64,000 nucleotides of DNA from a virus. This document shows, piece by piece, positions 4,401 through 54,846 of the stretch. The notes beneath the pieces were generated by a model. It was not told the DNA's origin. It saw only the letters and a program-made list of their open reading frames with translations, and did not search any database. The DNA lies in IMG/VR virus record IMGVR_UViG_3300005536_000001; one strand, written 5' to 3'. Numbering within the stretch: position 1 is the stretch's first letter; each line of letters begins with the position of its first letter. Made by a program: the position numbers and the translations under genes.

Positions 4401-5538
4401 CTGTCTTCTTGTCACCAGGCTTTTCCTGATCTGGCTCGTGCCAGTCAGAAGCAAAATCACTGATTTCCTTGTATGCCTTTGACTTGATGACCGTCTTCTT
4501 GGTCTGCCACAGACCATTGTCATCTTTCTCACGAAGGTGATACTTGTTGCCTTCCCACAGGATGTGCTTCTTGCCGTCCTTTGTGACAGCGATAATCGAG
4601 CCGTCAGCCTGCTTCTTATGCACAAGACCATGTGTAATCTTAAGAGACTTGCCAGCCTTAAGACCACGAAGACCCTTACGACCATGATCCTTCTGGTCGT
4701 GCCTACCGCGCAAGTGAAACGCAGTCGCTGCCGCTGCTAGTGGTTCACCGTCAATCATCAAGAACTCCTCATCGGGAATATCCCAACCTAGCGTGCAGCG
4801 ACAAGAAATGGTTTCTTGCGGCGGTCCGGTGGGGTCGTGAGGATACGACATAGCATACCCGCCGACGATGAACTTATCGTCGATGCCAACTTCTTCACCA
4901 TCGATGTGTTCATGCGAAGGACGTGTGCGACTGTCGGTCGTCGCAATCCATTCCTTCGTCGCATTAAGTCCGGTGGCCTTCATCTCAGCGTATGAACCGG
5001 CATTGCTCGCGCCAATCACCTCGGTACGCGCAATGACCTCAGCGCGCGGTGAAGCAAGTTCAGTCGTCTTCATGAGACGATGACGAATCTCAGTAATGCT
5101 TTCACCGGCTTGCATACCAATCAGCATCTGCTGACGTGCGACGTTCCACACGAGATCGCCAATGGAGACAAGTCGATTAATCGCACTCTCGAGAAACAAC
5201 TCAGCAAGACGACTAACAACCTTCGGCACAAGAAACGCAGCGGTGAGTGCAACTGGTTGAGACTGCTGTGGTTGTGTCTGAGTCACCCGAGCAGCCGCTC
5301 GAATCAACTTCCCGTAGGTGTCGTCAGCCGAGTCAACCCACGCGTTACGGAGGTGTTCAATCAGCGCGTCGTTGACAGCAGAGGTCCAGTGGGTTCGAAT
5401 GATCGCGAGATCATTGATGTCTCCCACCTTAGGCATAGTGATATTGACGATCCTAGCAATCGTGCGCCTAATATCAGCAGCGAATCGATCACCACGATCA
5501 TCAAGCTGATCAAGACTAGGACCCGAGACGTGTACCAT
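1447..5538 (-). CDS. MuF-like minor capsid protein fused to seven repeat domains and a C-terminal ADP-ribosyltransferase domain
   Basis: 1363 aa ORF, RBS GAGGAAGG. N-terminal SPP1 gp7/Mu F-like motifs (RTEVIGASNAGSY, TRPSHEHIDGE, ETISCRCTL). Seven ~75 aa repeats each ending W(H/Y/W)xP. C-terminus carries LYRKT, ISTSIV and NENEFVLAPG (R, S-T-S, E-x-E). Confidence 0.9.
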   Translation of the reverse strand: MVHVSGPSLDQLDDRGDRFAADIRRTIARIVNITMPKVGDINDLAIIRTHWTSAVNDALIEHLRNAWVDSADDTYGKLIRAAARVTQTQPQQSQPVALTAAFLVPKVVSRLAELFLESAINRLVSIGDLVWNVARQQMLIGMQAGESITEIRHRLMKTTELASPRAEVIARTEVIGASNAGSYAEMKATGLNATKEWIATTDSRTRPSHEHIDGEEVGIDDKFIVGGYAMSYPHDPTGPPQETISCRCTLGWDIPDEEFLMIDGEPLAAAATAFHLRGRHDQKDHGRKGLRGLKAGKSLKITHGLVHKKQADGSIIAVTKDGKKHILWEGNKYHLREKDDNGLWQTKKTVIKSKAYKEISDFASDWHEPDQEKPGDKKTDDGDKKVTTDKKTTPTPAAAPTPVATDTASGASLKITHGLIHKKHADGTTIAVNKNGDKKVTWNGKSYDLDKKQADGSWKTEKTAIKSKAYKEVNDFDSAWHEPVAKGDDTELPSTRKTPAPAVKSVKSAATTLPNDVKYIKPGKQINLDQQYLDTHEFPDDSVIAISTFGTKKITAHGDKISFHHMDAKNKWVKNNETSMSDAQAAIDKADAYWHEPVAVSVGTPKSDKKSLVPAATPKPVASNTGVASDAVAKITPIPMEKELIEADKPLKIIDALSGDVPEYSTIAVTKDGNYRVVSLNGKYFEVQKNKKVGGWGPLTSFEKGDEYSDIVSLNKEWYTPKLATQKTKTVPSTSPMTAGEPIDITQDMFKDVNFPPKTVLAVNEDGTKRIMRSWNDTIAVQEWNAEFGVWTGSQWLTDGKEAEEVSKLNIKWHAPVETGSKATAPSAPGAPNVSTPKSTPTAPSKTIDKYAPVEPGRPITLAQEFFFQNYPANSTIAITPDGKTKIAWGNNGKYEILELDEKSGTWFVTENANQYGALAMAQNFSIEWHEPENASPSSINTPGNSSTSTKSANKLKHVYMGNKALLDQPVTLTQATFEDSYPSGSVIAMNAFGTYQLTREGGKFKIRANDGKGNWIVVQESDKDGAFKMADSFAADWWSVKTDVNSVTENYPVSAPSAPSAPSGPKTFTPFQKAYVQSIFGSNGVKWHTDTKKIYDAALEVSKKDSSLSMADALDIMDQSLLKKTDNPFATKMNKFLSTKAGMKYAQEKGGSAPVGSVTPSVAAASKSSVNIPKSNLPAKNLTKASATNMQQRMDLLSPPPWTAAQRAALKNYTGGSYTEINKCARGTGACSPATIAKIKQIKAAMKPSTENIKLYRKTNLATFGVTSNEQLEALAGKTIRDDGVISTSIVEGTWSGQVHLKIEAPAGSKMAWVQPISHYPNENEFVLAPGTEFEVISVEPHWSEPNQRVMKVRIVPGSGTP
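2415..4650 (-). repeat. seven tandem in-frame domain repeats inside the MuF-ART gene
   Basis: Units such as LKITHGLVHKKQADGSIIAVTKDGKK...DWHEP, LKITHGLIHKKHADGTTIAVNKNGDKK...AWHEP and five more diverged copies. Copies are separated by P/T/S/A-rich linkers. Confidence 0.8.
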
Positions 5539-7417
5539 TGATTACCTTCCTCGGATTCGCGACAAGTCGTGTATCGTCGTGATTGATGAGTCGCTGCCCG
5601 ATGGACAACTCGCCGCGATCAGTGAGGAAGCACTCGTAATCACCCTTTGTGCCAGGGCGGAATCGCACGCCTTCATAACTGGCATGCGTGAACGGGCAGG
5701 AGAATTGCTTCTCCATGCAGATGAGTGGATGCTTAAGCCGCCAGCTGTCAATCGTGAATTCCATCACGTGACGCATACCAGCTTGCATGATTGCGAACGC
5801 GCGATTCTCAGACGAGAGTGATTCGAATGGTACAGGACTTGGAATCAACGAACCAGCGGGCTTAGGCAACACGCTTTCAATTGCAATACGCTCAAGCTCA
5901 GCAGCCAATGCGGCAGGCGCAGGTGGTTCATCGTTTCCAGTGTTCGGTGGCCCATCGTTTGATGCACCACTATCGCCATCAGACTCAGCGCCAGTCACCA
6001 CTGGACCTTCGGTGGAAACAGCCGCCTGATTCGCCGGCTCTTCAAGTTTGATGCCAGTGAGTTCCTGCAATGCCTGAATGGCAAGAGTCGGGTTTGTTGC
6101 CAGCTTCTTAAGGATCATGTTGGCAAGCTCGGTGTCGTCAGGCGCATCATCCTCGTCAAAACCAGTTTCACGACGAAGAGCAGTGCCCGACAACTCGAAG
6201 CGGTCGTACACATCCTTGGCATTGTCCGACTTGTCTGGCCGCACCATCAATTCAGATGCGTCATACCAAACAACCCAGTCCTCGTAATCTTCGATGCCAG
6301 CAGCACGCATACGCGGGTGCAAGTATCCGGTAGTGAGACCATGAGTAATGATCTCAACATCAGGTGTGATGTAGGTACGAATGGCACCTTCTTCAAGCTG
6401 CCACAATCCCCAGTGATTGACATCACCTGCCTGGAAGAGCAGGTCGGCTGGGACGTTAATCTGTGAAGCCAAACGATTCCGAGCTGAGTCACGCTTTGCG
6501 ATGATGTTATCATCCATCTTAAGCGTGAAGTCAATGTGCTTTACCTTCTCCACGTACTCAGCAGGCACGCGAATTGGAAGCGGGATCAGCGATGATGCTG
6601 AGCCAGGATTCTTGATGGCTTCAGCAGCAGTCTCAATCCATTCACGAATGAACGGGTCAGGCTCATTCATAAATTCAGGACGCACAGGAAAAGTAATCTC
6701 ATCGGGGAAAATGATGAGACCGGCTGACGCAAGACGTGATAGGTACTGTGCCTGAATGTGTCGGTTGACCAACTCAAGTTCACGCATCGCGCTACGCGCG
6801 GAGTACGCGGACGAGTATGGTAGATAATGAAGCCGCTTGTGCGGACGCCAAATACGTGTCACGTATGATGTGGCAACAGGAAGCGTACGCCAAATGACAT
6901 CGGATTCCGTCGATTCATCAGAGATGACTTCATACTCGCGTCCACGACGTCGAATTTCGTCACTCGAGATGACACGCCACTTCTGCCGGTTACCCGTTGT
7001 CTCACCAACAAGCCAGCCCTCAGCGGGCACATCAAGGTACACAGAGAGCGAACCGAGCATTTCGGTCTGTCCGGCGGTGCCACGACAAAGTTCATTCACA
7101 AAGTCAGCCGCTGGACCTACATCGACAATCTCAGGCTCATCTGAACCGGGCTTCAACCTTGCAGCACGAAGCCGCACGCGAGAGATCATGTATGAACGCC
7201 ACGTCACGGAGATGTTGAATTCACCGAGCGTGTCGTAGTAATCCCACAGCTCACGCTGCCAACCATCATACTTTGGCGTTATGCGCGTGCGACCCCGTGC
7301 GATTGTGTTGACCGTCTGAGCAGCGGCGGTCAAAACACGTTCATCACGCGATGGCACAACGAGACGGGTGTCAACTGCCGCATGCTTGCTCTTCTTACGG
7401 CGATCCCACCATACCAT
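5516..7417 (-). CDS. portal protein
   Basis: 633 aa ORF lying between terminase and MuF. N-terminal KYDGWQRELWDYYDTLGEF pattern typical of actinophage portals. Size and synteny fit. Confidence 0.8.
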   Translation of the reverse strand: MVWWDRRKKSKHAAVDTRLVVPSRDERVLTAAAQTVNTIARGRTRITPKYDGWQRELWDYYDTLGEFNISVTWRSYMISRVRLRAARLKPGSDEPEIVDVGPAADFVNELCRGTAGQTEMLGSLSVYLDVPAEGWLVGETTGNRQKWRVISSDEIRRRGREYEVISDESTESDVIWRTLPVATSYVTRIWRPHKRLHYLPYSSAYSARSAMRELELVNRHIQAQYLSRLASAGLIIFPDEITFPVRPEFMNEPDPFIREWIETAAEAIKNPGSASSLIPLPIRVPAEYVEKVKHIDFTLKMDDNIIAKRDSARNRLASQINVPADLLFQAGDVNHWGLWQLEEGAIRTYITPDVEIITHGLTTGYLHPRMRAAGIEDYEDWVVWYDASELMVRPDKSDNAKDVYDRFELSGTALRRETGFDEDDAPDDTELANMILKKLATNPTLAIQALQELTGIKLEEPANQAAVSTEGPVVTGAESDGDSGASNDGPPNTGNDEPPAPAALAAELERIAIESVLPKPAGSLIPSPVPFESLSSENRAFAIMQAGMRHVMEFTIDSWRLKHPLICMEKQFSCPFTHASYEGVRFRPGTKGDYECFLTDRGELSIGQRLINHDDTRLVANPRKVINGTRLGS

Positions 7418-7430
7418 CGCTTTACATCCC

Positions 7431-7769
7431 CTATCGAGTCAAGAATTCCTCAAGGTGCGAGATCAAACTTGCACCTGCCGCGATCGCGAGCCAGACGAGT
7501 AGTGGCGCCGGAACACCGATGGTCAATGCGGTCAAGCTCGTTACAACGGCCGAAGTCCAGACTGGCATGCACCACATGCAGGTCCAGAGGTAGGCAAGCC
7601 AGTAAGGTACCTTCGTCTCTCGTCGAGTGCGATCATTAGCCTGTGGTGTGTATGGATCGGTCAGCTTCTTACGAAGCCAAAGCAGCGGTGGGAAATCATC
7701 TTCCGTGAGAAGCTTTGCGGTGCGGTATGTGACCAAAGTCATCAGCACCAAGAGTACCTCGTTTGACAT
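7431..7769 (-). CDS. membrane protein, DUF1360-like
   Basis: ORF track 7431..7802 trimmed to the ATG at 7769 (RBS AGGGGTG, avoids overlap). Hydrophobic segments and a CMWCMPVW motif. Confidence 0.55.
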   Translation of the reverse strand: MSNEVLLVLMTLVTYRTAKLLTEDDFPPLLWLRKKLTDPYTPQANDRTRRETKVPYWLAYLWTCMWCMPVWTSAVVTSLTALTIGVPAPLLVWLAIAAGASLISHLEEFLTR

Positions 7770-7779
7770 TGTCACACCC

Positions 7780-8046
7780 CTACTTTGCGATGATCGGTGC
7801 AAATGTACCGATCAGTGATACAACCGATGCGATAAGTGTGAGGTAGAGCAACCAACTTCGATCGGCAGTCTTATCCATCTTCGTTTCTACCTGCGTAAGA
7901 CGGTGATTGAACAACGCCATTTGCGGCTCCTGTGCCCGCATGTACGCATCCATCTTACCGTCAAGAATCATCAGAATGTCGTATATTTCTTTTACACCAA
8001 TCTCAACTGAGCCCGAAGCCACTTCGTCACCTCTCTCGGATTCCAT
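7780..8046 (-). CDS. hypothetical protein with C-terminal transmembrane segment
   Basis: ORF track 7780..8094 trimmed to the ATG at 8046, just after the terminase stop. C-terminal WLLYLTLIASVVSLIGTFAPII helix. Confidence 0.45.
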   Translation of the reverse strand: MESERGDEVASGSVEIGVKEIYDILMILDGKMDAYMRAQEPQMALFNHRLTQVETKMDKTADRSWLLYLTLIASVVSLIGTFAPIIAK

Positions 8047-8062
8047 TAACGTATCATAACAG

Positions 8063-9424
8063 CTATCCGATCGAGCGGGACATGGAACCTCCACCTGCGA
8101 ATGAACCCATACCGCGAGGACGCGTGGCTACGATCTTGTTATGCCAAGCAGTCCACACCATAGCGTCAAGTCGGTCGGGTGAGTAATCGAGCTCAGGAGT
8201 CCAGGTGCACAACTGATCCTCAAGCTCTGGGAAAGTACCAACGTGATGCCACTGACCACGAGTGGAAAGTGCTGCAACAGGCTCGGCACGAACACGCTTA
8301 CCACGTGTTGCCACGACCATTTTCACGGGAATGGTGATACCCATTGAAAGCGCCGCGTCTCGGATTGTGACAACGGCCATTTCACCACCGTAGTTCGTCT
8401 CGACAACGATGTCGTCTGCTTCCCAGTCAATCGCCGCCTGGACTGCCCGACGACCCCATCCGGCAGGGCCGAGACGACACGTCATATCGGAAAGAACGAA
8501 ACCTTCAAAGCGCTTTTGCTTACGCTCCTTGACGATCTCATCGATGATGAACTTACCCGCGACGACGATACCTTGCTCACCAGCACCACCCGATGGGTCA
8601 ACACCGACCGTGACGCGTACAAGCTCAGGAGCTTCCTTAACACGGAAGTGATCGATGTCATCGCGTCGCCACAACGCGTTTTCATCCTGATCCATGACTT
8701 CGGCGTACAGTTCCTGTCGACCAATTTGCGTGCCTTCATAGTCCGCAAAAAGTTCGTCTCGAACGTGCTGCTCAAGGTAGGGATTATCGTGAGTCGTTGC
8801 GTGCGTGACAATGACGTTGTGCGGCGTGTTCTTAACAAGCTTCTTGATGAGCAACTTTGGCTTAGGCGTCGTACTCGCGATCCAGCGAGGTGTCTTACCG
8901 GTACGAAGACCAAACCGCATCTGCTCATAGCATTTGTCGAGATGACGCCAAGCCGCGAGTTCTTCAGCCCATACTAGGCATGTGTTACCGCCTGCGCGTA
9001 GACGTTCGATATCATCAGGCGTGGAAGCCCCGAATAGCTTCGCTTGCGAGCCGTTACTCCACTTGATAACAGTGCCGCCTAGACCTCCCGCAATACGAGA
9101 GGTCGGGTCGTTCGGTCCAATCCCCGCCGGCCCCGCGAAACACGCCTGGACAGCGTCTCCAAGCGTCGGACCAATGATACCAATCCAGTGAGGTGTGCTG
9201 CCGGGTAGACACGGCGGGCCCTTCACATGATCGATCACGTATTGCGCACACGTGCGGGTTTTTCCAGAACCACGACCCGCGTTCAAAAGCCAGCCATACC
9301 AGTTTCCAGCTGGTGGAATCTGGTGAGGGCGGGGGTTCCAACCCGGCGGGCGCTCGAGATAACTCATCAAAGCGCGTGCAGAAGCGCCAGCGACTTCGCT
9401 GCGCGTCATTCCACCGGCGGTCAT
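8063..9424 (-). CDS. terminase large subunit
   Basis: 453 aa. Walker A NAGRGSGKT. Nuclease-domain VGVDPSGG. Located upstream of the portal gene. Confidence 0.9.
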   Translation of the reverse strand: MTAGGMTRSEVAGASARALMSYLERPPGWNPRPHQIPPAGNWYGWLLNAGRGSGKTRTCAQYVIDHVKGPPCLPGSTPHWIGIIGPTLGDAVQACFAGPAGIGPNDPTSRIAGGLGGTVIKWSNGSQAKLFGASTPDDIERLRAGGNTCLVWAEELAAWRHLDKCYEQMRFGLRTGKTPRWIASTTPKPKLLIKKLVKNTPHNVIVTHATTHDNPYLEQHVRDELFADYEGTQIGRQELYAEVMDQDENALWRRDDIDHFRVKEAPELVRVTVGVDPSGGAGEQGIVVAGKFIIDEIVKERKQKRFEGFVLSDMTCRLGPAGWGRRAVQAAIDWEADDIVVETNYGGEMAVVTIRDAALSMGITIPVKMVVATRGKRVRAEPVAALSTRGQWHHVGTFPELEDQLCTWTPELDYSPDRLDAMVWTAWHNKIVATRPRGMGSFAGGGSMSRSIG

Positions 9425-9506: not shown

Positions 9507-10454
9507 CTACAGCGGCTGAGCCGACGGCTTGAGGATCATGTCGAGTCGAGCCAGCGACTTGTCAAGCATTTCCTGCACGTCGGCCTTCGTGACATTCCCG
9601 CCAGTGCCGGAACCCATCTTGTCGAGCTTGCCCGAAATGGCGGAGAGAACACTTTGCATTGCGGCGAAACTGTCCGTCATCGCCTTGAGCTCGGCGGCAT
9701 CACGCGCCTTGGCCTCAGCGGCAGCCTGCCACGTGGCGTCGAACAGGGTCTCGCGCTCGCCGTCAGCCGGGTTCACCGGCGCGTCAGCCGTGATGGACAG
9801 GAACGCGTTGATGCGCTCGACGTTGTGCGCAACGTTGGCGAGCAGAGCCGCTTCGTCAGGGGTCATGTCGTTCTCCTCATTGTTGTATCCGTACCGAATG
9901 AGTCGTGCGATGTCGAGTGCGCCAGGGTCCCAGTGCGAGTCAGGCGCGGGCAGGTGCTGATGCCCAAGCCAACCAGAGAAGTCACGAAGCTGCGCAGGCG
10001 TGATGCGAAGCGGCGAATTCGGTGATGCGATCGTGACACCATCAGTGTCATCAAGCCACTGCTTCTCGATGCTCTCAGGCGGCACACCGAATGCATCGGC
10101 AATCGGCCCAATGACGTCGGCTGCGATGTTGCGGTACGCGATGTCGGGCCAGTTGCGCGTGTCGTGCGCGAAGCCAACCAGCTCAATCTGGACCATGAAG
10201 TCGTCGTCATTGCCGTCCATCGCGGAGTACGATGCAAGGTCCAGTGGGATGTGCTGCTTAGCTTCCCTTGTCCGCCAGTCGTAAATGCCGTGAGGCGGAT
10301 AAGGTGCGTATGCATTAACCGCACCTGCGATGGACGTACCCTCGGTCGTGTGCAGGCAGCACTTGGGATTTTCCACAAATTGGTAAAGCTTGCCGCGTAC
10401 ATCACCACCGAGTGGATTCTTCGCCCACCCGGGCAACCACTGTGATTTGACCAT
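9507..10454 (-). CDS. N-acetylmuramoyl-L-alanine amidase (endolysin component)
   Basis: 315 aa. Amidase_2/PGRP-like motifs CLHTTEGTS and GHQHLPAPDSHWDPG. C-terminal coiled-coil-like region. Confidence 0.75.
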   Translation of the reverse strand: MVKSQWLPGWAKNPLGGDVRGKLYQFVENPKCCLHTTEGTSIAGAVNAYAPYPPHGIYDWRTREAKQHIPLDLASYSAMDGNDDDFMVQIELVGFAHDTRNWPDIAYRNIAADVIGPIADAFGVPPESIEKQWLDDTDGVTIASPNSPLRITPAQLRDFSGWLGHQHLPAPDSHWDPGALDIARLIRYGYNNEENDMTPDEAALLANVAHNVERINAFLSITADAPVNPADGERETLFDATWQAAAEAKARDAAELKAMTDSFAAMQSVLSAISGKLDKMGSGTGGNVTKADVQEMLDKSLARLDMILKPSAQPL

Positions 10455-10462
10455 AATTCCCC

Positions 10463-11155
10463 TTACGCTGCCATCTGAACGGTGATGTCATCGAGTGTGA
10501 CACCGGCCATCAATTGATTGCGGTCGAACCTCGATACCTGTGAGCCAGGCATCGTGACACCAGGAATGATTTCCTCCAAGTCAAACTGGTGAATGGCGGT
10601 GCGTCCGTTAAACGTAAAGCTAGTCTTACCTGCAAATTCGTCAGGTGACTGGCCCTTCGGAGTGGCCCACTTTGCCGTGTGCCCAACCCAGAAACGAACA
10701 CGCGAATCGAGATTATCATCGACGCGTACTTTGTCACGAAGAAAGCTACCCGAACCATAGAGCATCAACGGGACTTCTGAGTGTAGCATGTACGTGGCAA
10801 TGAAGTCACGAGTCCACGCTGCCCAATCAACCTTAGCACTTCCGGCGATGTCATCAGTCGGCTCGATGTCAACAGCCGGAAAGAGATTACCAGGAAGCAT
10901 GAGGCCAAGTGCATCAATGACACTGAGCATGTCAATCGCTTCAGCATACGGTGAACGCTTCACAGCATCAACCCGATAGTACCCACCAGTAACTCGAGTA
11001 CGACTTGCGTTGATAGCATTCGTTCGTGCCATTTTATCGACACAGCCACTTCGCCAGTCCATCGCACCGATGTAGGCGAATTCGACCCAGTCAGGCATCG
11101 CTTCCCAGTTCAGATATCCCTGATAACGTGAGACGTCGATTCCACGAGTCACCAC
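10463..11155 (-). CDS. glycoside hydrolase family 25 muramidase (endolysin component)
   Basis: 230 aa. N-terminal GIDVSRYQG and EFAYIGAM motifs typical of GH25 lysozymes. Confidence 0.8.
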   Translation of the reverse strand: MVTRGIDVSRYQGYLNWEAMPDWVEFAYIGAMDWRSGCVDKMARTNAINASRTRVTGGYYRVDAVKRSPYAEAIDMLSVIDALGLMLPGNLFPAVDIEPTDDIAGSAKVDWAAWTRDFIATYMLHSEVPLMLYGSGSFLRDKVRVDDNLDSRVRFWVGHTAKWATPKGQSPDEFAGKTSFTFNGRTAIHQFDLEEIIPGVTMPGSQVSRFDRNQLMAGVTLDDITVQMAA

Positions 11156-11163
11156 TGGACCTC

Positions 11164-12378
11164 CTACTTACGACCGGGCGTGACAAGCGTGATGTGCGAA
11201 GCCGCAGGAATGTAACCAAACGGGTCAATCACGACGCTACCGCTCGGGAACGTGATGTTGGCGTATTCAGGGTGCTTCGTCGCGATGAAGAAAATGCGTG
11301 CTGTGAAAGACGAGGTGGACATGTACGGGTCCTTGCCCTCAACGATGAAGTCAGTGTGCAAGAACTTGATGCCTGCACCTGCGAGAAGATCAGCGAGTAG
11401 CATCGCGGGAGAACCTGCGGTGGAATTGACGCATGGCTTGTATGTCATACCAAAGATGGTGATTGGTAGTCCAGTGAGGCGCTGCCACTTTACGATGAGA
11501 CTTGCCTGCCACGACGCATGCGCCTGCCGCGCTGAGACGAGATACCCCATCAAGTCGACCGACATGTTGTGCTTGACTGCGAGTGCTGACATGGCAATGT
11601 TGTCACGCGGATGGCACGCTCCGCCATCACCCATTCCAGCGGTGAGATACTTCGTCGAGATGATGCGGTCAGTACCATAGCCGAGGGCGGTCGTCACCTC
11701 ATCGACGTCAGCGCCAGTGTTGTCGCACATTTCCGCCATCGTGTTGGCGAACACAATCTTCATAGTGATGAAGGTGTTGTAGGCCACCTTCGTGAGCTCT
11801 GCCGACGCGATCGAGACCACGCAAGGCGGCGAAGAATGCATGCCCTCATAGAGATCGAGGACCCGCTGTTCGTCACCCGGAGTGTCCACGCCGAGCAACA
11901 CGAATTCCGGGTTGGTGAAGTCATCGATCACGGTGCCCATGGCGATGAAGAACGGGTGATATACAAGTCGAGTGTGCACATTGAGTAGCGGACGAATGTC
12001 TCGATCAACCGTGCCAGGCAGCACAGTGGAGACGATGACAATCGTGATGTTCTTGCCCAGATCACTCGCTGTCTTGGCAATTGCACGCACCGCGTTGATG
12101 AGATAGCCATACTCGAAATCTTCAGGCTCGAAGTCATCATCCATCGCGGTTTCACCGCCAAAGTCAGCGGCATGCGGCGTCTGGACAGCGACGTACACGA
12201 CATCATCAGTGTGCTTGACAACATCATCGAGGGAATTAGTTCGTGACACAAACTTTCCCTCTTCAGTCGCGCCACCGTTGATGTCGTAACCGAGAACATC
12301 ATGCCCACCATACACGTTCAAGGCCCATGCGCACGGTAGCCCCAACTTACCAAGTCCCACCCAGCTGACCGCACTCAC
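11164..12378 (-). CDS. nucleotide-sugar dehydrogenase (UDP-glucose/GDP-mannose dehydrogenase family)
   Basis: 404 aa. Rossmann motif VGLGKLGLPCA. Catalytic-Cys motif GGACHPRDN. Confidence 0.75.
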   Translation of the reverse strand: MSAVSWVGLGKLGLPCAWALNVYGGHDVLGYDINGGATEEGKFVSRTNSLDDVVKHTDDVVYVAVQTPHAADFGGETAMDDDFEPEDFEYGYLINAVRAIAKTASDLGKNITIVIVSTVLPGTVDRDIRPLLNVHTRLVYHPFFIAMGTVIDDFTNPEFVLLGVDTPGDEQRVLDLYEGMHSSPPCVVSIASAELTKVAYNTFITMKIVFANTMAEMCDNTGADVDEVTTALGYGTDRIISTKYLTAGMGDGGACHPRDNIAMSALAVKHNMSVDLMGYLVSARQAHASWQASLIVKWQRLTGLPITIFGMTYKPCVNSTAGSPAMLLADLLAGAGIKFLHTDFIVEGKDPYMSTSSFTARIFFIATKHPEYANITFPSGSVVIDPFGYIPAASHITLVTPGRK

Positions 12379-12980
12379 GAGTTAGTCCTCCTCTTGTACA
12401 ACCCCTTGAACGGCGTTCCATCAACGGTAGACTCTACTGCCACCAGCGAGAGCTGGGGGTACTGAAACACCATCTTCGCAGGGGTCAGAGTATCCTGCAA
12501 GTGACGCTGATGGATGTTCCCGTCTTCCTCACCCTGAGGATAATCATAGGGAACGATCACGTAGTATTCAGTGCACACACGCTCAAAATCAAGCAGCATC
12601 TGCTGTGCGCGCTCGAGATCCAAGTGCTCAAGCACATCGCCAAAAATGACCACATCCCAGTGCGTGCCATCGGGGAATTGCGTGACAACATACGCGGCAT
12701 CACCGATGTACACAGTGTCATACAATTCATGAAGCCTATGTTCTTCGATGTATGGCTCGAAAATCTCGATGGCATCCATCTGTGGGTAATCGGCAAGAAG
12801 CACTCGATACTTACCCTGCCCAGCGCCAACGTCAAGGATGCGAATGTCCAGTGGGTCGTATTGACTCACCTGTCGTCGAACCTGCGCACCCGCCCAATCA
12901 TACGTACTCAGCCAGTTGTTCCGGTATGCATGCGCCATCGCATCCGAAAGATGTTCATTCACAGCTGCTCCACCAGCCAC
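12375..12980 (-). CDS. class I SAM-dependent methyltransferase
   Basis: 201 aa. Motif I ILDVGAGQGKY. Later VIFGDVLEHL. Confidence 0.7.
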   Translation of the reverse strand: MAGGAAVNEHLSDAMAHAYRNNWLSTYDWAGAQVRRQVSQYDPLDIRILDVGAGQGKYRVLLADYPQMDAIEIFEPYIEEHRLHELYDTVYIGDAAYVVTQFPDGTHWDVVIFGDVLEHLDLERAQQMLLDFERVCTEYYVIVPYDYPQGEEDGNIHQRHLQDTLTPAKMVFQYPQLSLVAVESTVDGTPFKGLYKRRTNS

Positions 12981-13933
12981 TTCACAGTCTGCTCAAGACC
13001 ATCATCAAATGAATGGGTTGGACTCCAGTCTTGATTTGGAATAAGCTCTGCGTACTTCGGATCCCAACCCGGTCGTGCATCTTCACCGCGCTGCTTAATG
13101 GTGTATGGTGCTTTACCCATCATATCACCGATGCGATTAACGAGCGACATATTATCCACGTACTCTTGCCCCTGAAGCACGATACGCTCTGGGAACTGAA
13201 ACAAATCACTCGTGTGTTCAGCATCTTCACGAAGAAGCCCGATGATGTGTTCGGTAACATTCTTCACATAGGTGTAATGCCGACCACCAGGGAAATCCGC
13301 GTAGTAATGCACGGGAATTCGAGTACCCTCGTTGATCCAGCGCACAACCTTGGGGATGAAGGCCAGCTCAGACTGCCTCTGGCCAAACATATTGGCGCTA
13401 TTGACAATCGCTACCGGAATTCGGAACGTACGCCTGTACGAGTGACAGATGTCCTCCTGAGACGCCTTAGAGGCGGCATACGGACTGCTTGGCTGGTGAT
13501 CTGCTGGGGCGCAGGGGGACGTCCGTCCGTACACCTCGTCCGTTGACATGTGAATGAATCGACGCGGTCCCGTTTCACGCGCCAATTCAAGCATGTTGAG
13601 CATCAACTGGACATTGTTGCTAATGAAGCCAACAGGGTCTTTAATGCTTGCCTCGACCTGACTCATCGACGCGATGTTCACGATGTAGTCAATGTCACCG
13701 ATAAAATCAAACTGCTGATTGCGAAATGGCACCGAGAGATCATGTGTCATGTGCGAAACACCACGACCAGCCTGTCGCAAATCGGACATAGCCTGCATCG
13801 TTGACCGGACATTCCCGTTATGCCAGGCCTTGAGGGAATCAATGCAGACGACATCCCAGTCAGTCTTCTGCAACACCGTCTCGAGGACATGACTCCCCAC
13901 GAATCCAGCAGTGCCTGTGATAAGTACTCTCAC
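12959..13933 (-). CDS. NAD-dependent sugar epimerase/dehydratase (SDR family)
   Basis: 324 aa. MRVLITGTAGFVGSHV glycine-rich loop. YAASKAS (YxxxK) catalytic motif. Confidence 0.85.
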   Translation of the reverse strand: MRVLITGTAGFVGSHVLETVLQKTDWDVVCIDSLKAWHNGNVRSTMQAMSDLRQAGRGVSHMTHDLSVPFRNQQFDFIGDIDYIVNIASMSQVEASIKDPVGFISNNVQLMLNMLELARETGPRRFIHMSTDEVYGRTSPCAPADHQPSSPYAASKASQEDICHSYRRTFRIPVAIVNSANMFGQRQSELAFIPKVVRWINEGTRIPVHYYADFPGGRHYTYVKNVTEHIIGLLREDAEHTSDLFQFPERIVLQGQEYVDNMSLVNRIGDMMGKAPYTIKQRGEDARPGWDPKYAELIPNQDWSPTHSFDDGLEQTVKWLVEQL

Positions 13934-14586
13934 GTGGAACTCCCCGGGTGATATGAGAAGTAAGGGCTATTGACGACAACACGCGTGTGCTGCTTCGCAG
14001 ACACAGGCACAGATCCCGGCTGCCATGTGCTGTCACCACTGGACGAGTAATATTCGTACATGATGCGATCGATGTAGTGTTCGGTGATGGCGAGACCACG
14101 CATCTGATCACACCACGCAACATCCTCAGGCGGCACAGTCTTTCGGAAATCAGCCTGCTTGGCAAGCTGCAACCTCACTGGATTGAGGTGACTCACATCG
14201 CGATAGTAGCCCTCATGATCATCCCACCAGTGATCAAACTGCAAGCTGTGGTATGTCGGCTTAAGTGGATTCCCGTCGATGTACGTCTGCATCCGCCAGC
14301 CAATGTAATCAACACCGTCAAGTCGGCTCACGATTTCGTCGACGAAATAGTGCGGCACGATGTCGTCATCATCGATGAACGAAACGTACTCACCATCAGC
14401 ACGCTCGATAAGCGATTGCCGAATGTGCGACAGCGAGTGCTCACCATTGTTCCACAACGCTGTGACGATGACATCACCATCGTACTTATCAACCTGTGGC
14501 ATGAGGATATCGATAAGGCGCTTAAACCGATCACCTCGCTGTCCAAGAGTCGCAATCAGGATGTTCCACTTAGGCGACACACGCAC
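13930..14586 (-). CDS. glycosyltransferase (GT-A fold, DxD)
   Basis: 218 aa. WNILIATLGQR N-terminus and VSFIDDDD motif. 4-nt overlap with the downstream gene. Confidence 0.7.
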   Translation of the reverse strand: MRVSPKWNILIATLGQRGDRFKRLIDILMPQVDKYDGDVIVTALWNNGEHSLSHIRQSLIERADGEYVSFIDDDDIVPHYFVDEIVSRLDGVDYIGWRMQTYIDGNPLKPTYHSLQFDHWWDDHEGYYRDVSHLNPVRLQLAKQADFRKTVPPEDVAWCDQMRGLAITEHYIDRIMYEYYSSSGDSTWQPGSVPVSAKQHTRVVVNSPYFSYHPGSST

Positions 14587-14588
14587 TC

Positions 14589-15278
14589 CTAGGCAGTGAA
14601 CGCAGCGATAGCTGCTCGTAGCTTGTTGGCATCCTCGAGACGCTCATGCGCCTTGGAATTGTAAATCGCCTGGACGTTATCCTGCTGATGACGGGCGAGC
14701 CGCTCGTTGTGCGTCGTGTCCCATGGCCCCTTGTTCACAACAGGATGCATGTGCTCGGTGTAGACGTGGTGCAGGTAGGTTCGCCGGCCAATCGTATCAG
14801 CGACTTCAGTGTTCCATGAGTCGTTGTAGTCGGAGCTGAAGTATGGTGGAACCAGGTAGCCTAGTGTGTCAGTCCAGCGGCGATGATAAAAGCCGTGCGT
14901 GGCGAGGTTCGCATCTTGATAGCCATCACGGCCATGGACGAGCACGATCTTGTCGGGAATGCGTGCGAACGCGTCAAGCACGTGTGAGTCCCAGCCTTCC
15001 GATCGGAAGATGATGTCGTCACCACAATGCATGAAGATATCGCTATCCTCATTCGCCTGCATCCAGCAGGCGTTCCACATCTCCGAGAGGATGATGCGCG
15101 GACCAACGACAGCCTTGACGTCAAGACGCTCAGCCATCTCGTAAGATGCCATGTCGTCTTCATCGATGTAGAAGACGAACTCCAGGTCGTCCGGCATTGT
15201 CGCTGTCTTGCGTGCCGAGGTAACCATACGCTGCATGCTGTCGGGACGACCACGCGTGGGGCAAAGAATGCTGATCAT
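14589..15278 (-). CDS. glycosyltransferase-like protein
   Basis: 229 aa. ISILCPTRGRP N-terminus and FVFYIDEDD acidic motif. Confidence 0.6.
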   Translation of the reverse strand: MISILCPTRGRPDSMQRMVTSARKTATMPDDLEFVFYIDEDDMASYEMAERLDVKAVVGPRIILSEMWNACWMQANEDSDIFMHCGDDIIFRSEGWDSHVLDAFARIPDKIVLVHGRDGYQDANLATHGFYHRRWTDTLGYLVPPYFSSDYNDSWNTEVADTIGRRTYLHHVYTEHMHPVVNKGPWDTTHNERLARHQQDNVQAIYNSKAHERLEDANKLRAAIAAFTA

Positions 15279-15297
15279 GTCTTCTCCTTGATGCGAA

Positions 15298-15332
15298 AGT
15301 GCCCGGTCCAGCGGGTTGCTGAACCGGGCACT
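15298..15332 (-). terminator. strong hairpin inside glycosylation operon (possible attenuator or processing site)
   Basis: AGTGCCCGGTCCAGC-GGGTT-GCTGAACCGGGCACT: 14 bp stem with one mismatch. On the minus strand it is followed by UUUCGC and then the RBS AAGGAGAAG of the next gene. Confidence 0.5.
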
Positions 15333-15341
15333 CAGATGAAC

Positions 15342-15974
15342 TTACTTCCAGGCCCTGCCGCTAGTGTGGTTCCCGTGCCAGACCCAGCGCCACGTACGCC
15401 TAGGCGCGTGTACGAACTTCGCGCCTTCACGCAACATCTTCTGCCAGCAGCCCCAGTCCTCGTTGGTTTCGTTCGGCCACTCCTCGGTGCCAGGCTGCGG
15501 GAAGCCACCAACCTTCTCGAGCATTGAGCGCTTCACGAGAACCGTGATGGGAATGAAGTTGCCCTCGGTCATGATGTACCGAGCAGCATCATCACCGAAT
15601 GGAACACCGAGGGGCGAGACGTACTTCCCGTTGTGGAGAACCGAGAGCGGGTCCGGTCCTTCCCACAAGTCAAACCATGGGTACACCAGGTCGGCACCCG
15701 TTGCCTCAGCGGTCTGGAGCAGGAACTCGAGATGATTGGGGTAGATGACATCATCGTCATCGACGAAGGCGATCCAGTCGGTGTCAGGATGCGAGAGCTG
15801 CCACGCCATGTTGCGATTCTTCGCCGCGCCAAGACCTTCGGTGTCGACACGAACGATGATCTCGTCGGCTTGACGTATTTGTGTTTGCACTGACCGAACG
15901 GCACGCTCGAGCATCTCCTCCCGACTAGGAATCGTGGGAATACAAACGGCGATCGTTGCTGCCATGAGTCTCAC
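15342..15974 (-). CDS. glycosyltransferase family 2
   Basis: 210 aa. IAVCIPTIPSR N-terminus. WIAFVDDDDVIYPNHL DxD motif. Confidence 0.8.
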   Translation of the reverse strand: MRLMAATIAVCIPTIPSREEMLERAVRSVQTQIRQADEIIVRVDTEGLGAAKNRNMAWQLSHPDTDWIAFVDDDDVIYPNHLEFLLQTAEATGADLVYPWFDLWEGPDPLSVLHNGKYVSPLGVPFGDDAARYIMTEGNFIPITVLVKRSMLEKVGGFPQPGTEEWPNETNEDWGCWQKMLREGAKFVHAPRRTWRWVWHGNHTSGRAWK

Positions 15975-16162
15975 TTCTCAGGGTCTCGATTGGGAATACC
16001 GAACACAGCACCCAGAGTGACGACGAATGCACCGGCTGCGGTCAACCAATCCGTGAGGTCAATCACCTGATCCTGACTCCCCATCACGAGCGCCGAAATA
16101 AGCGCACCAGCCGCAGCAATCCATGCCTTGGTCGACTCCGGGGAGAACAAAGTCTTGAGCAT
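15971..16162 (-). CDS. two-TM membrane protein (possible holin)
   Basis: ORF track 15971..16252 trimmed to the ATG at 16162, which follows AGGAGG. Helices AWIAAAGALISALVMG and WLTAAGAFVVTLGAVFGI. 4-nt overlap with the next gene. Confidence 0.45.
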   Translation of the reverse strand: MLKTLFSPESTKAWIAAAGALISALVMGSQDQVIDLTDWLTAAGAFVVTLGAVFGIPNRDPEK

Positions 16163-16196
16163 TTCCTGACCTCCTAGACCTTCGACCGACTGGCCG

Positions 16197-16415
16197 TCAG
16201 CCGTCGCTAGATGTCGCTGTCGCCTCTGTCTGGCTGCTAACAGCTTCCCCACTAGGGAAATTACCAGCTACCACCTCGAGTCCGCTAGGGAGGTGACAGC
16301 GACACCTGCACGTCATGTCATTAGGCAGTGGAAACAGACCACAGCGATCGTGCGCACCCTTCGCAGTGCTGTTGCAGAAGCCGGAAACGTACGTGCTAGC
16401 TTTCTTGACCTTCAC
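16197..16415 (-). CDS. Cys-rich hypothetical protein (C..C.C.CH motif)
   Basis: Part of ORF 16197..16514. GTG at 16415 follows GAAAGGTGG. Sequence GFCNSTAKGAHDRCG...CRCRCH. Start is uncertain. Confidence 0.35.
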   Translation of the reverse strand: MKVKKASTYVSGFCNSTAKGAHDRCGLFPLPNDMTCRCRCHLPSGLEVVAGNFPSGEAVSSQTEATATSSDG

Positions 16416-40842: not shown

Positions 40843-41001
40843 GCTGTTCTCCATTGCCTATGACATGTGTATTGTGATACCGACGGTAACACATCCCATC
40901 ATTCTCAGCAACAAGAGGCATGCGTGCACCGGCCTTGGGTCCAGTGTGACACTCGCACCAGCAATCCTGTGGACACAGGTACCAGCACGGCTGGGTGCAC
41001 T

Positions 41002-54765: not shown

Positions 54766-54837
54766 CGACACGTAGCTCACTTGGCAGAGCAACAGACTAT
54801 TAATCTGTATGAACCGGTTCGAATCCGGTCGTGACAA
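54766..54837 (+). tRNA. tRNA with anticodon loop CTATTAA (anticodon ATT)
   Basis: 72 nt cloverleaf. D arm GCTC-ACTTGGCA-GAGC. Anticodon stem ACAGA/TCTGT. T arm ACCGG-TTCGAAT-CCGGT. Acceptor CGACACG/CGTGACA has C1-A72 and A3-A70 mismatches. Confidence 0.55.
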
Positions 54838-54846
54838 CACTTCTAT

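Follow-up and report, generated by a model that had tools for sequence, protein, structure and literature searches.

A six-gene sugar-activation and glycosyltransferase cassette in an uncultured actinobacterial phage, with a putative role in virion glycosylation

Actinophage glycosylation operons and the six-gene cassette

Phage-encoded glycosyltransferases have been shown by experiment to glycosylate capsid and tail-tube proteins in Che8, Corndog and Myrna (Freeman 2023, cited in PMC12363180 and PMC11600133), and Che8 gp110 and Corndog gp38 have been named as essential for capsid glycosylation (PMC12363180). The operons differ in content: Che8 contains three glycosyltransferase genes, Cluster O phages an O-methyltransferase gene and three glycosyltransferase genes (PMC11600133), LittleE four glycosyltransferase genes and one for a kinase, and phiAsp2 a glycosyltransferase, a glycosyltransferase-methyltransferase fusion and a further glycosyltransferase.

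The window analyzed here is a 64,000-nucleotide stretch (IMGVR_UViG_3300005536_000001) of an uncultured actinobacterial phage. A first-pass annotation had described a cluster of six genes at positions 11164-15974, and this was confirmed: all six ORFs are present, co-directional on the minus strand and positive in coding scores, and their family matches agree with the description. Judged by these matches, they code for three GT-A (GT2-type) glycosyltransferases (GT1, GT2 and GT3), an RmlB-like SDR, a class I SAM-dependent methyltransferase (MT) and a UDP-glucose dehydrogenase-type enzyme (UGDH). With two tailoring enzymes and a methyltransferase in addition to three glycosyltransferases, the cassette is larger than the operons of Che8, Cluster O, LittleE and phiAsp2, as had been proposed. 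Its conservation (45-98% amino-acid identity) extends to one Mycolicibacterium prophage and approximately 20 contigs of uncultured phages.

GT3 and GT1 are homologous to proteins of these actinophage operons (Che8 gp108, LittleE gp15 and phiAsp2 Pas33). LittleE gp15 lies after the major capsid protein (MCP) gene. The GodonK homologues, gp81-82, are flanked by the adaptor and major tail protein genes, and in phiAsp2 the tail genes are followed by Pas33-35, whereas Che8 gp108-110 are located near the right genome end, with unannotated neighbours and outside the structural modules. GT3 shares 39% identity with Pas33, 30% with LittleE gp15 and 27% with GodonK gp81; its relationship to the validated Che8 operon is remote, at 27% identity with the gp108 N-terminal domain. 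In a comparison that covered Che8, gp110 showed no BLAST-level similarity to the cassette.

Predicted products of the cassette

GT1 (15342-15974, minus strand; 210 aa) and GT3 (13930-14586, minus strand; 218 aa) code for GT-A/GT2-family glycosyltransferases matching PF00535 (E 6.7e-13 and 3.9e-5, respectively) and phrog_14775 (E 2.8e-30 and 7.8e-40). GT1 contains FVDDDD and EDW motifs and GT3 FIDDDD and PEDV, and an R...DDDD...ED...W pattern is common to both. GT2 (14589-15278, minus strand; 229 aa) is a GT-A glycosyltransferase of a distinct family. A Pfam search with GT2 itself gave no match; it matched phrog_14945 "glycosyltransferase" (E 1.4e-40), and many of its 354 homologues, including some at 55-69% identity, carry PF00535. 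Its AlphaFold (AF2) model (pLDDT 96.2) matched the GT-A enzymes SpsA, TarS, TarP, RmlT and K4CP in Foldseek (E approximately 1e-8 to 1e-7). In the model, D39-D42 follow strand beta2 and D87-D88 follow beta4, which we take to be equivalent to Asp39 and Asp98/99 of SpsA. These matches, the Asp motifs and the model bear out the assignment of all three proteins as GT-A enzymes. GT2 also has a homologue in phiAsp2, the N-terminal domain of Pas34. Its gene directly adjoins that of UGDH in contigs L046, L047 and L049 and is close to it, with a GT3 homologue or about 0.8 kb in between, in L050, L013, L017-L019 and L052; GT2 is a candidate hexuronosyltransferase.

UGDH (11164-12378, minus strand; 404 aa), a nucleotide-sugar 6-dehydrogenase by its matches, contains all three UDPG_MGDP_dh domains (PF00984, E 1.7e-21; PF03721, E 5.5e-14; PF03720, E 1.4e-3) and matched TIGR03026 with 162 bits, the next best models being AglM and TuaD. 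Its best PDB matches are UDP-glucose dehydrogenases, and its GGACHPRD aligned with GGSCFPKD, keeping the catalytic Cys, in agreement with the proposed nucleotide-sugar dehydrogenase. The nearest curated families of GT1, GT3 and UGDH belong to shared uronic-acid pathways, AglG/AglM and TuaG/TuaD.

The SDR (12959-13933, minus strand; 324 aa) is an extended SDR of the NDP-hexose 4,6-dehydratase (RmlB) type. It matched PF01370 (E 1.7e-41) and TIGR01181 (dTDP-glucose 4,6-dehydratase), the latter with 155 bits, short of the equivalog cut-off (365). Among curated families and structures alike, its best matches are dTDP-glucose 4,6-dehydratases (top PDB matches 2hun, 6bi4 and 1g1a). The GxxGxxG, STDEVYG and YAASK motifs aligned, the last two forming the catalytic signature, whereas the UDP-GlcA 4-epimerase 6zl6 has STSSVYG in place of STDEVYG. 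The earlier assignment as epimerase or dehydratase is thus narrowed to the latter, epimerase activity being disfavoured by these matches and the signature.

MT (12375-12962, minus strand; approximately 195 aa) could be called from 12980, but its true start is likely the GTG at 12962, which overlaps the SDR stop codon in GTGA. It showed weak matches to Methyltransf_23, Methyltransf_11 and Methyltransf_25 (E 9e-6 to 1.7e-4), and the PDB search returned generic methyltransferase matches only. Its LDVGAGxGKY (here LDVGAGQGKY) and GDVxEH motifs are invariant across 10 orthologues, and the annotated SAM methyltransferase is upheld by these class I matches and the former motif.

A hydrophobicity check revealed no transmembrane segment in any of the six proteins, all of them being soluble, and no flippase or polyprenyl-phosphate transferase accompanies the cassette. 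This indicated direct transfer in the cytoplasm.

Gene coupling, flanks and position among virion genes

GTGA start/stop overlaps were found at the small membrane protein gene/GT1, GT3/SDR, SDR/MT and MT/UGDH junctions; GT2 and GT3 are separated by 2 nt, and 8-nt spacers lead to two lysin genes. Since the GT1/GT2 gap is 63 nt long and holds a strong conserved hairpin, the translational coupling previously ascribed to the cluster holds for most junctions but not for all. This RNA hairpin (15297-15333, minus strand) has a 16-bp stem and a minimum free energy of -33.2 kcal/mol (z = -3.9 versus shuffles). In contig L002 the stem is unchanged and the loop has one change, in a region of approximately 77% nucleotide identity. 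It was rejected as a canonical intrinsic terminator, its 3' tail being only UUUC.

Upstream of GT1, the ORF annotated as holin-like (15971-16162, minus strand) is extendable to 16252 and better read as a 63-aa protein from the ATG at 16162, which is preceded by an AGGAGG ribosome-binding site. The protein has two modestly hydrophobic segments (maximum KD19 1.71) and gave no match in Pfam, PHROG and NCBIfam searches. Downstream of UGDH come two endolysin genes (9507-11155, minus strand), outside the cassette: one for a GH25 muramidase (10463-11155; PF01183, E 2.1e-9; phrog_291 "endolysin") and an amidase-like one (9507-10454; weak Amidase_2 match, E 0.0025), and then TerL. The cluster does lie between a holin-like gene and lysins in the window, as annotated. 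However, no lysin homologues were found between UGDH and TerL in L002, L003, L004, L005 and L051. In these relatives no more than a short gap or a single small ORF lies between UGDH and TerL, and the cassette and the small membrane protein gene are kept; the latter adjoins GT1 in L002 (79%) and L004 (39%). The position next to lysis genes is therefore incidental.

These flanks, together with the teichoic acid glycosyltransferases among the top structural matches of GT2 (the prophage-encoded TarP, plus TarS and RmlT) and the NCBIfam near-matches to the teichuronic acid synthesis proteins TuaG and TuaD, would also fit cytoplasmic-side modification of a glycopolymer of the host cell envelope, which might block superinfection, prevent adsorption of progeny to debris or tune lysis. 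We regard this function as improbable, since the lysis-gene link is not conserved, the cassette lacks a membrane-anchoring domain, flippase or initiating transferase, and the copy in the Mycolicibacterium prophage sits inside a late structural operon, the wrong place for lysogenic conversion. Late expression in a lytic cycle would also leave little time for remodelling.

In every lineage examined, the cassette lies in or borders the virion/packaging gene block, and the cassette or its GT2-GT3-UGDH core occupies at least five different positions across independent phage lineages. It was found directly upstream of TerL (the window, L002-L005, L008, L009 and L051), upstream of an intein-containing protein, maybe the large terminase, with a Mu-type portal after it (L052), between TerL and portal (L014 and L016), directly after genes for the tape-measure and minor-tail proteins (L007), downstream of an SU10-type portal (L017), and, in the integrated prophage of Mycolicibacterium sp. 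S2-37, immediately after the major capsid gene and upstream of tail/connector genes. GT1 follows UGDH instead in L006, L007 and L010. Cyanophages and pelagiphages also carry UGDH-type genes, usually discussed as cell-surface or metabolic auxiliary genes. It is nevertheless very improbable that the cassette merely boosts nucleotide-sugar pools or makes a small glycosylated metabolite with no dedicated macromolecular target: its three transferase genes, tightly coupled to those of the tailoring enzymes, are inherited with them as a unit across lineages, consistently among virion genes.

Both this context and the homology to actinophage operons favour virion proteins, the target preferred from the outset. 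On balance, we consider that the cassette would glycosylate virion proteins late and in the cytoplasm, using donors made by the phage (probably a hexuronic acid and a 6-deoxyhexose) together with O-methylation; the six genes probably form a self-sufficient unit expressed with the late genes. The synthesis of a modified sugar had been proposed. Phage-made modified sugars are indeed implied. Since UGDH and SDR occur independently of one another in relatives, however, these enzymes probably supply two distinct donors and do not act in a single pathway.

Regarding sugar identities, acceptor proteins, expression timing and biological role, we infer the following scheme. The two tailoring enzymes would divert host nucleotide sugars, UGDH probably converting UDP-glucose to UDP-glucuronic acid and the RmlB-like SDR probably converting an NDP-glucose to NDP-4-keto-6-deoxyglucose, which could be used directly or turned into a 6-deoxyhexose such as rhamnose by host RmlC/RmlD. 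The three soluble transferases would then build up a short hetero-oligosaccharide of at most three sugars per round. They would do so in the cytoplasm, directly on phage structural proteins of the capsid and/or tail, either ahead of assembly or in its course, and MT would cap a hydroxyl of one sugar. If mycobacteriophages are a guide, the modification may mask or stabilize the particle surface. Against this reading, no long Ser/Thr-rich C-terminal extension was seen in the capsid protein; in its favour, though weakly and post hoc, Ser or Thr occurs within the last four residues of the MCP, the major tail protein, the phrog_779 protein and a head protein.

Probable 5-hydroxymethylcytosine synthesis and a separate DNA-type sugar module

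Hydroxymethylated DNA bases had been suggested as an alternative target, given a ThyA-like Asp variant on the other arm. This variant (56433-57302) was verified: it carries N177D and also L143D, with D169 and C146 retained, the signature of 5hmdCMP synthases and MilA (PMC13326640). Its gene is flanked by those of a P-loop kinase and a dCMP deaminase, and dTMP synthesis is covered by a separate ThyX (42949-43635). These features indicated 5-hydroxymethyl-dCMP synthesis, so that the phage, by its gene content, very probably makes 5hmC.

One or more of the GT-A enzymes might accordingly glycosylate 5hmC of replicated phage DNA, for example with hexuronic acid, or extend a first sugar added by a GT-B enzyme, yielding a partly methylated hetero-oligosaccharide that would block host nucleases. 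DNA glycosyltransferase activity has been proven for phage GT-A (GT2) enzymes that carry R..DDD..ED motifs and share their fold and top PDB matches (TarP and K4CP) with the cassette; some make HexA-5hmC, some need partner SDR "epimerases", and DNA-glycosylating clusters are also known near terminase and structural genes (bioRxiv 10.1101/2023.12.21.572611). DNA modification late, just ahead of packaging, is also normal (PMC13326640), and RL38J1 makes tri-hexosyl cytosine with three dispersed glycosyltransferases. Moreover, at least four contigs carry both the cassette and a ThyA(D/D) gene, and in L007 and L010 a distance of 5-8 kb separates the cassette from DNA-module homologues (GT-B, NTP-PPase and C5-MT) on the opposite strand.

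We nevertheless judge an action on DNA unlikely. In contigs 92-94% identical to the window, a separate and complete DNA-type sugar module follows shortly after the point where the window ends. It shares the replication arm with ThyA and PolA and is 40 kb from the cassette, which is on the other arm. It comprises genes for a GT-B enzyme, a sugar-1-P nucleotidyltransferase extended at its C-terminus by a long additional region, a KpsF/GutQ-type arabinose-5-P isomerase and an all-alpha NTP-pyrophosphatase (NTP-PPase)-like protein, and mirrors the DLP3/RB69 organisation. Since this module plausibly meets the need for DNA glycosylation, the six-gene cassette, apparently distinct from it, is not needed to explain that modification, though it may still act as an extender. 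The position of the cassette core right after the prophage capsid gene and the nearest cultured-phage homologues in structural operons, one operon being experimentally tied to virion glycosylation, also argue for virion proteins instead. Other lineages carry the core with no ThyA-like gene seen in the stretch available. Conversely, the related phage DSL-LC01, with no match to GT2, GT3 or UGDH of the cassette among the matches listed, has the ThyA module and keeps a glycosyltransferase, a UDP-galactopyranose mutase and MazG in the slot beside ThyA.

Enzymes encoded by the cassette

None of the enzyme classes described here is new, nor is the glycosylation of phage virions; without precedent is a compact and mobile version of six genes that has its own donor-sugar chemistry and is widespread in uncultured actinophages. 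The cassette (11164-15974, minus strand) contains three glycosyltransferase genes (GT1, GT2, and GT3), and one gene each for an SDR protein, a methyltransferase (MT), and a nucleotide-sugar dehydrogenase (UGDH). The first-pass annotation had located these six ORFs exactly, and its call of three GT-A transferases with DxD-type motifs was borne out by PF00535 and PHROG matches, by the fold of the GT2 model, and by the Asp motifs. GT1 (15342-15974) and GT3 (13930-14586) matched PF00535 with 49 and 24 bits, respectively (cut-off 23.3 bits), and both matched the same PHROG; the R, DDDD, P-E-D, and W positions were invariant over 17 GT1/GT3 orthologues. GT2 (14589-15278) had no Pfam match of its own; many of the 354 members of its family, close homologues included, carried PF00535, and profile A1, used for the GT2 assignment, matched TarP (E 0.0047). 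An AlphaFold model of GT2 obtained from 47 sequences (pLDDT 96.2) superposed on SpsA, TarS, TarP, RmlT, WrtF, and K4CP, with an alignment probability of 1.00 to the first four of them, and D39/D41/D42 and G86-D87-D88 were invariant among GT2 orthologues. Since GT1 and GT3 gave profile matches and the GT2 model superposed on classic GT-A enzymes, the three proteins are assigned to the GT-A fold (CAZy GT2-like), as predicted by the model for GT2 and by sequence for GT1 and GT3.

The SDR (12959-13933) had been annotated as an epimerase/dehydratase; its motifs agreed with the dehydratase part of that name and not with the epimerase part. Its best matches were dTDP-glucose 4,6-dehydratases, and the stretches GTAGFVGSH, STDEVYG, and YAASK aligned residue for residue with 2hun, 6bi4, and 1g1a. 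It carries GxxGxxG, the catalytic Thr-Asp-Glu triad (STDEVYG), and YxxxK, whereas the UDP-GlcA 4-epimerase 6zl6 has STSSVYG. Because the score against TIGR01181 (155 bits) was well under the RmlB equivalog cut-off (365) and other RmlB-conserved motifs (ESHVD, NNYGP) diverged, the protein was filed as dehydratase-type and not as RmlB. Decarboxylases carry Thr-Ser-Glu at the site of the triad. A UDP-xylose, UDP-arabinose, or UDP-GalA pathway formed by UGDH and SDR was considered and rejected, given Thr-Asp-Glu in the SDR versus Thr-Ser-Ser in 6zl6; the independent occurrence of both genes in relatives also argued against a single UDP-sugar pathway.

UGDH (11164-12378, 404 aa) matched PF03721, PF00984, and PF03720, and its GGACHPRD (with the catalytic Cys) and ELTKVAYNTF stretches aligned to UGDH motifs. 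The gene is assigned from these matches to the UDP-glucose/GDP-mannose dehydrogenase family, with a TIGR03026 score (162 bits) slightly under the subfamily cut-off of 190. Its best PDB and NCBIfam neighbours were the UDP-Glc dehydrogenases 4a7p, AglM, and TuaD, all of them far under equivalog cut-offs. MT, which probably starts at 12962, is a generic class I SAM methyltransferase, the narrowest type to which its Pfam and PDB matches assign it. No membrane segments were found in the six cassette proteins.

GTGA overlaps were present at four gene boundaries, and spacers of 2 nt and 8 nt at three others. The exception was the GT1-GT2 junction, where a 63-nt gap, the only sizeable one in the cassette, holds a GC-rich hairpin with a 16-bp stem (15297-15333, minus strand; -33 kcal/mol, z -3.9). 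A relative with ~77% identity in the flanking genes has exactly the same stem, and no U-run was present 3' of the hairpin, which may attenuate transcription, serve in RNA processing, or stabilise the mRNA. In a promoter and terminator scan the number of sites was no higher than expected by chance, and the sole promoter-like candidate (17637-17610) lay upstream of the gene run.

The cassette had been described as lying between a holin-like gene and the lysins. This placement turned out to be incidental, since no phage other than that of the window and its 96%-identical relative has the two lysins there. The ORF upstream of GT1 (15971-16252) encodes two weakly hydrophobic segments, had no family match in Pfam, PHROG, or NCBIfam, and still adjoins GT1 in relatives without lysins between UGDH and TerL. 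Two small proteins between TerL and the probable portal gene (7431-8094, minus strand), each with a C-terminal transmembrane segment, are alternative candidates for a holin or membrane protein, so that the name holin is not secure for 15971-16252; in L051, a related contig, DUF1360 is carried by the counterpart of one of the two. More distant relatives lack the lysin pair at this position. The GH25 lysin (10463-11155) was 78% identical to its counterpart in the related contig L001 (3764-4447), amid flanking UGDH, amidase, and TerL genes that were 98-100% identical, a difference which suggests local mosaic replacement of the lysin gene.

Genomic context and mobility of the cassette

A codon-usage-based gene call split the window into two arms, one on the minus strand from ~48.9 kb down to 0.5 kb and one on the plus strand from ~49.0 kb. 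At the start of the minus arm lies a gene for a primase/D5-type helicase (46420-48783), followed by thyX (42949-43635), which is separate from the ThyA-like gene, and by ~70 small ORFs. One of these early small genes encodes a 455-aa protein (39487-40854) with a weak GH5/cellulase match (E 4.5e-4). The arm ends, in this order, with the cassette region, the two lysins, TerL (8063-9424), a 633-aa protein (5516-7417), and a 1363-aa fusion protein (1447-5538), all on the minus strand. The 633-aa protein has no Pfam match; it keeps its place between TerL and the MuF gene in relatives and is probably the portal. In the fusion protein, a Phage_Mu_F (minor head) domain is joined by an ADP-ribosyltransferase (ART) exoenzyme/toxin domain at the C-terminus (E 5e-21), and the protein may be a virion-packaged ART effector; the equivalent region of L051 consists of two genes, each with an ART match. 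The plus arm encodes RtcB, a P-loop kinase-like protein, the ThyA-like enzyme, dCMP deaminase, PolA, and an SNF2 helicase. The RtcB RNA ligase gene (50612-51790; E 7e-117) lies ~3 kb upstream of the single tRNA gene called (54766-54838), a tRNA-Asn with the unusual anticodon ATT, and the two may form a tRNA repair or anti-anticodon-nuclease arrangement. A 329-aa protein (52365-53354) has a mucin-like Ser/Thr-rich stretch at residues 227-282.

The phage is an uncultured tailed phage with a genome of roughly 90 kb, and its relatives come from IMG/VR, Logan assemblies, and MAGs only. A near-identity DNA search of 50,697 phage records with the cassette region gave no match, and a PolA-based search for distant relatives returned close relatives only. 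TerL, the glycosyltransferases, and a WhiB gene just beyond the window point to an actinobacterial host.

IMG/VR and Logan contigs of 40-130 kb carry the same six genes, with amino-acid identities of 45-98%, and in the closest lineage the order was the small ORF upstream of GT1, GT1, GT2, GT3, SDR, MT, UGDH, and TerL. Over all lineages, the cassette, or a core of GT2, GT3, and UGDH, occupied at least five different sites, each of them inside or next to packaging, head, or tail genes. Outside the closest lineage, it lay between TerL and portal (contigs L014 and L016), ahead of an intein-containing protein, possibly the large terminase, with a Mu-type portal after it (L052), on the downstream side of an SU10-type portal (L017), immediately behind the tape-measure and minor-tail genes (L007), and, in a prophage on a 1.5-Mb scaffold of Mycolicibacterium sp. 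S2-37 (L050), right after the major capsid gene and upstream of tail and connector genes. The cassette behaves as a mobile unit that shifts position within the structural gene block, and for this reason it provides a tractable marker for predicted glycosylated virions, a prediction that bears on phage-therapy immunogenicity. The prophage (NZ_JAFEVR010000004.1, 412727-433410) encodes GT2-like and GT3-like proteins, UGDH, and a fourth glycosyltransferase (phrog_7009); as its host is cultivable, it could serve to test what the cassette core does.

SDR was present without UGDH in L014, and UGDH without an RmlB-like SDR in L017, L046, L047, L049, and L050. This independent gain and loss speaks for UGDH and SDR supplying two donors over a single pathway, which also fits the chemistry, as a C6 carboxylate is not open to 4,6-dehydration. 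GT2 was often closely linked to UGDH (directly adjacent in the contigs L046, L047, and L049), and it is therefore tentatively proposed as the best candidate for a hexuronosyltransferase; assignments of the glycosyltransferases are tentative because GT1 and GT3 show weak affinities to AglG and TuaG.

Based on these data, we propose virion proteins as the target of the cassette, a reading to which we give slightly better than even chances. In the proposed mechanism, two nucleotide sugars of the host would be tailored by soluble cassette enzymes that are probably expressed together with the late genes: UGDH would convert UDP-Glc to UDP-GlcA, and SDR would convert NDP-Glc to a 4-keto-6-deoxy derivative, possibly finished by host RmlC/RmlD. 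The three GT-A transferases would then, still in the cytoplasm, build up a short glycan on the structural proteins themselves, to be capped by MT; the sugars, acceptors, and timing are those we infer from the genes. That the glycan is destined for the host envelope is in our judgement quite improbable, and any other target or role still more so; a small share of the probability we assign to none of the readings considered.

Predicted DNA modification genes and the proposed target of the cassette

An Asp-variant ThyA noted in the first-pass annotation proved to be real: the enzyme has Asn177Asp and Leu143Asp and keeps Cys146 and Asp169. In the residue rules set out in Lee et al. (2026; PMC13326640), N177D makes the enzyme specific for dCMP, hydroxymethylases (the T4 enzyme and MilA, for example) are recognised by an acidic residue at 143, and D169N would mark 5-hydroxy-dCMP synthases. 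Under these rules, the retained C146 and D169 together with L143D and N177D fit an enzyme of the 5hm type and not of the 5ho type. The ThyA-like gene lies in the window between those for the P-loop kinase-like protein and dCMP deaminase (55468-57991). Contigs 92-94% identical to the window extend the plus arm past 64000, where a PD-(D/E)XK nuclease, an AAA_24 protein, and a DUF669 protein precede a sugar module. This module encodes, in this order, a GT-B-like glycosyltransferase (444 aa), a sugar-1-phosphate nucleotidyltransferase (502 aa) with a long extra C-terminal region, a KpsF/GutQ-type arabinose-5-phosphate isomerase, a dUTPase_2/all-alpha NTP-pyrophosphatase-like protein, and a C5 DNA methyltransferase, and WhiB comes next; the genes from GT-B to the C5 DNA methyltransferase lie within 10001-15266 of L035, a contig of the same phage type. 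Together with 55468-57991 and ThyX it constitutes an apparently complete toolkit for cytosine replacement and DNA sugar addition.

The DLP3/RB69 arabinosylation clusters described in PMC13326640 have essentially the same parts list as this module. Their ThyA homologues are of the 5ho type, unlike that of the phage studied here, which keeps D169. A ThyA-family enzyme, a kinase, dCMP deaminase, and an NTP-PPase-like gene are shared with DNA-glycosylation clusters in general (T-even, DLP3/RB69, and MT/5mYOX- or ThyS-associated). DSL-LC01, a freshwater Actinomycetia phage, has the same kinase-ThyA-deaminase-PolA-helicase synteny and, in the same slot, a glycosyltransferase, UDP-galactopyranose mutase, and MazG; DSL-LC01 was not among the matches listed for GT2, GT3, or UGDH. 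The variability of this slot and the presence of the L035 module make DNA glycosylation in this lineage appear to be the job of a variable replication-arm module. The phage whose genome carries the cassette seems also to glycosylate hydroxymethylated DNA, by a different module; in this genome, a DLP3/RB69-like DNA sugar module seems to be paired with a hydroxymethylase-type ThyA homologue.

The first-pass annotation had also raised the possibility that the cassette itself acts on DNA. CAZy GT2-class GT-A enzymes are proven DNA glycosyltransferases, and some make hexuronic-acid-5hmC with SDR partners (Pyle et al., bioRxiv 10.1101/2023.12.21.572611), so that the fold and the late position of the cassette are compatible with such a target. 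The cassette shares the CAZy GT2-type GT-A fold and the same top PDB neighbours with ThyS- and 5mYOX-associated DNA clusters, and HexA and SDR-dependent products are known on DNA. The gene for the L143D/N177D ThyA variant and the cassette occurred together on at least four contigs among the best 80 of 374 matches, viewed over +/-10 kb per contig, a sample from which absence elsewhere is not inferable. In two of the related contigs (L007 and L010), the structural arm ends with the cassette and comes to within 5-8 kb of homologues of the DNA module, which lie on the other strand, and dispersed DNA glycosyltransferases are known from RL38J1 (PMC13326640). However, in contrast to DNA clusters, the cassette and the ThyA-like gene are on different arms, ~40 kb apart, and the separate GT-B module fills the clustered position instead. 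On this evidence we regard DNA as an unlikely target of the cassette.

The joint presence of both modules also admits a lineage running two independent glycosylation systems, a replication-arm module that adds a pentose (arabinose-type) to 5hmC DNA and a late virion-coating cassette, a combination that we consider less likely than not. The coat would then perhaps be a methylated glycan of uronic acid and deoxyhexose made from phage-tailored donors. To our knowledge, pentose on 5hmC would have no precedent in actinobacterial phages, nor in combination with a ThyA homologue of the 5hm rather than the 5ho type. In a variant, the GT-A cassette may lengthen the DNA glycan, so that cytosine would bear a methylated hetero-oligosaccharide. 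Since the genome seems to carry both modules, a single phage could serve to separate protein-directed from DNA-directed viral glycosylation.

Comparison with known and predicted virion-glycosylation systems

In Che8, Corndog, and Myrna, phage glycosyltransferases glycosylate capsid and tail tube (Freeman 2023, Cell Host Microbe 31:1216, as cited in PMC12363180 and PMC11600133). The Corndog operon consists of an O-methyltransferase and three glycosyltransferases (PMC12363180, PMC11600133), and Che8 gp110 and Corndog gp38 are named as essential for capsid glycosylation (PMC12363180). The cassette resembles these systems in its tandem soluble GT-A enzymes, sometimes with an O-methyltransferase, in the actinobacterial hosts, and in the expected acceptors, capsid and tail proteins, which for the cassette are predicted from genes. 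GT3 and GT1 were 27% identical to the N-terminal glycosyltransferase domain of Che8 gp108 (E 4e-10 database-wide, 2e-16 pairwise), and no BLAST-level match was found between the cassette and Che8 gp109 or gp110, the operon compared being that of Che8. Unlike the operons inspected in Che8, LittleE, phiAsp2, and GodonK, none of which has either enzyme, the cassette has its own 6-dehydrogenase and 4,6-dehydratase-type SDR, and no Mycobacterium, Gordonia, or Actinoplanes phage was among the matches listed in the UGDH search. Che8 gp108-110 are surrounded by unannotated genes close to the right end of the genome, whereas the cassette adjoins the terminase. The other cultured homologues are in structural modules (LittleE, phiAsp2, and GodonK, in the last between adaptor and major tail protein).

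The closest cultured-phage relatives of GT3, and with Pas34 also of GT2, were phiAsp2 Pas33-Pas34-Pas35 and gp15-21 of cluster J (LittleE/Omega). GT3 was 39% identical to phiAsp2 Pas33, 30% to LittleE gp15, and 27% to the N-terminal domain of GodonK gp81; GT2 matched the N-terminal glycosyltransferase domain of Pas34 (26%), which is fused there to an O-methyltransferase, unlike in the cassette. Both clusters share with the cassette the content of glycosyltransferase, methyltransferase, and glycosyltransferase genes, and lack UGDH and SDR. The phiAsp2 cluster follows tail genes and that of LittleE the capsid gene, positions likewise taken by the cassette in L007 and in the Mycolicibacterium prophage, respectively. 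We know of no experimentally established targets for the clusters of phiAsp2 and cluster J.

Chloroviruses and mimiviruses encode 4,6-dehydratases, UDP-Glc dehydrogenase, and GT-A transferases for capsid glycosylation, and the best BFVD match of GT2 was a mimivirus CAZy GT2 protein (40% identity, TM 0.96). Those giant viruses have eukaryotic hosts and much larger gene sets, in contrast to the compact bacterial-style operon of this tailed phage. Particle glycosylation has so far been shown only for a few mycobacteriophages with glycosyltransferase-only operons; if virion proteins are the target, it would extend to a widespread group of uncultured soil and freshwater actinophages, and phages, like giant viruses, could carry donor-sugar chemistry (uronic acid, 6-deoxy sugar, and methylation).

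The C-termini of structural proteins showed a weak Ser/Thr enrichment, noted post hoc. A Ser/Thr-rich C-terminal extension was absent from the major capsid protein (589 aa, phrog_777), whose gene lies beyond the window and was taken from relatives; it has only a short ...TGSANGTGATNL tail. In GodonK (L053, 36704-39817), the consecutive structural proteins gp76 (major capsid), gp77, and gp78 (major tail) end in ...SGS, ...TGS, and ...TGS, respectively, and adjoin the two glycosyltransferase genes gp81-82; this phage also has a gene of the L143D/N177D ThyA clade (gp192). The C-termini of gp76-gp78 may represent a shared acceptor motif.
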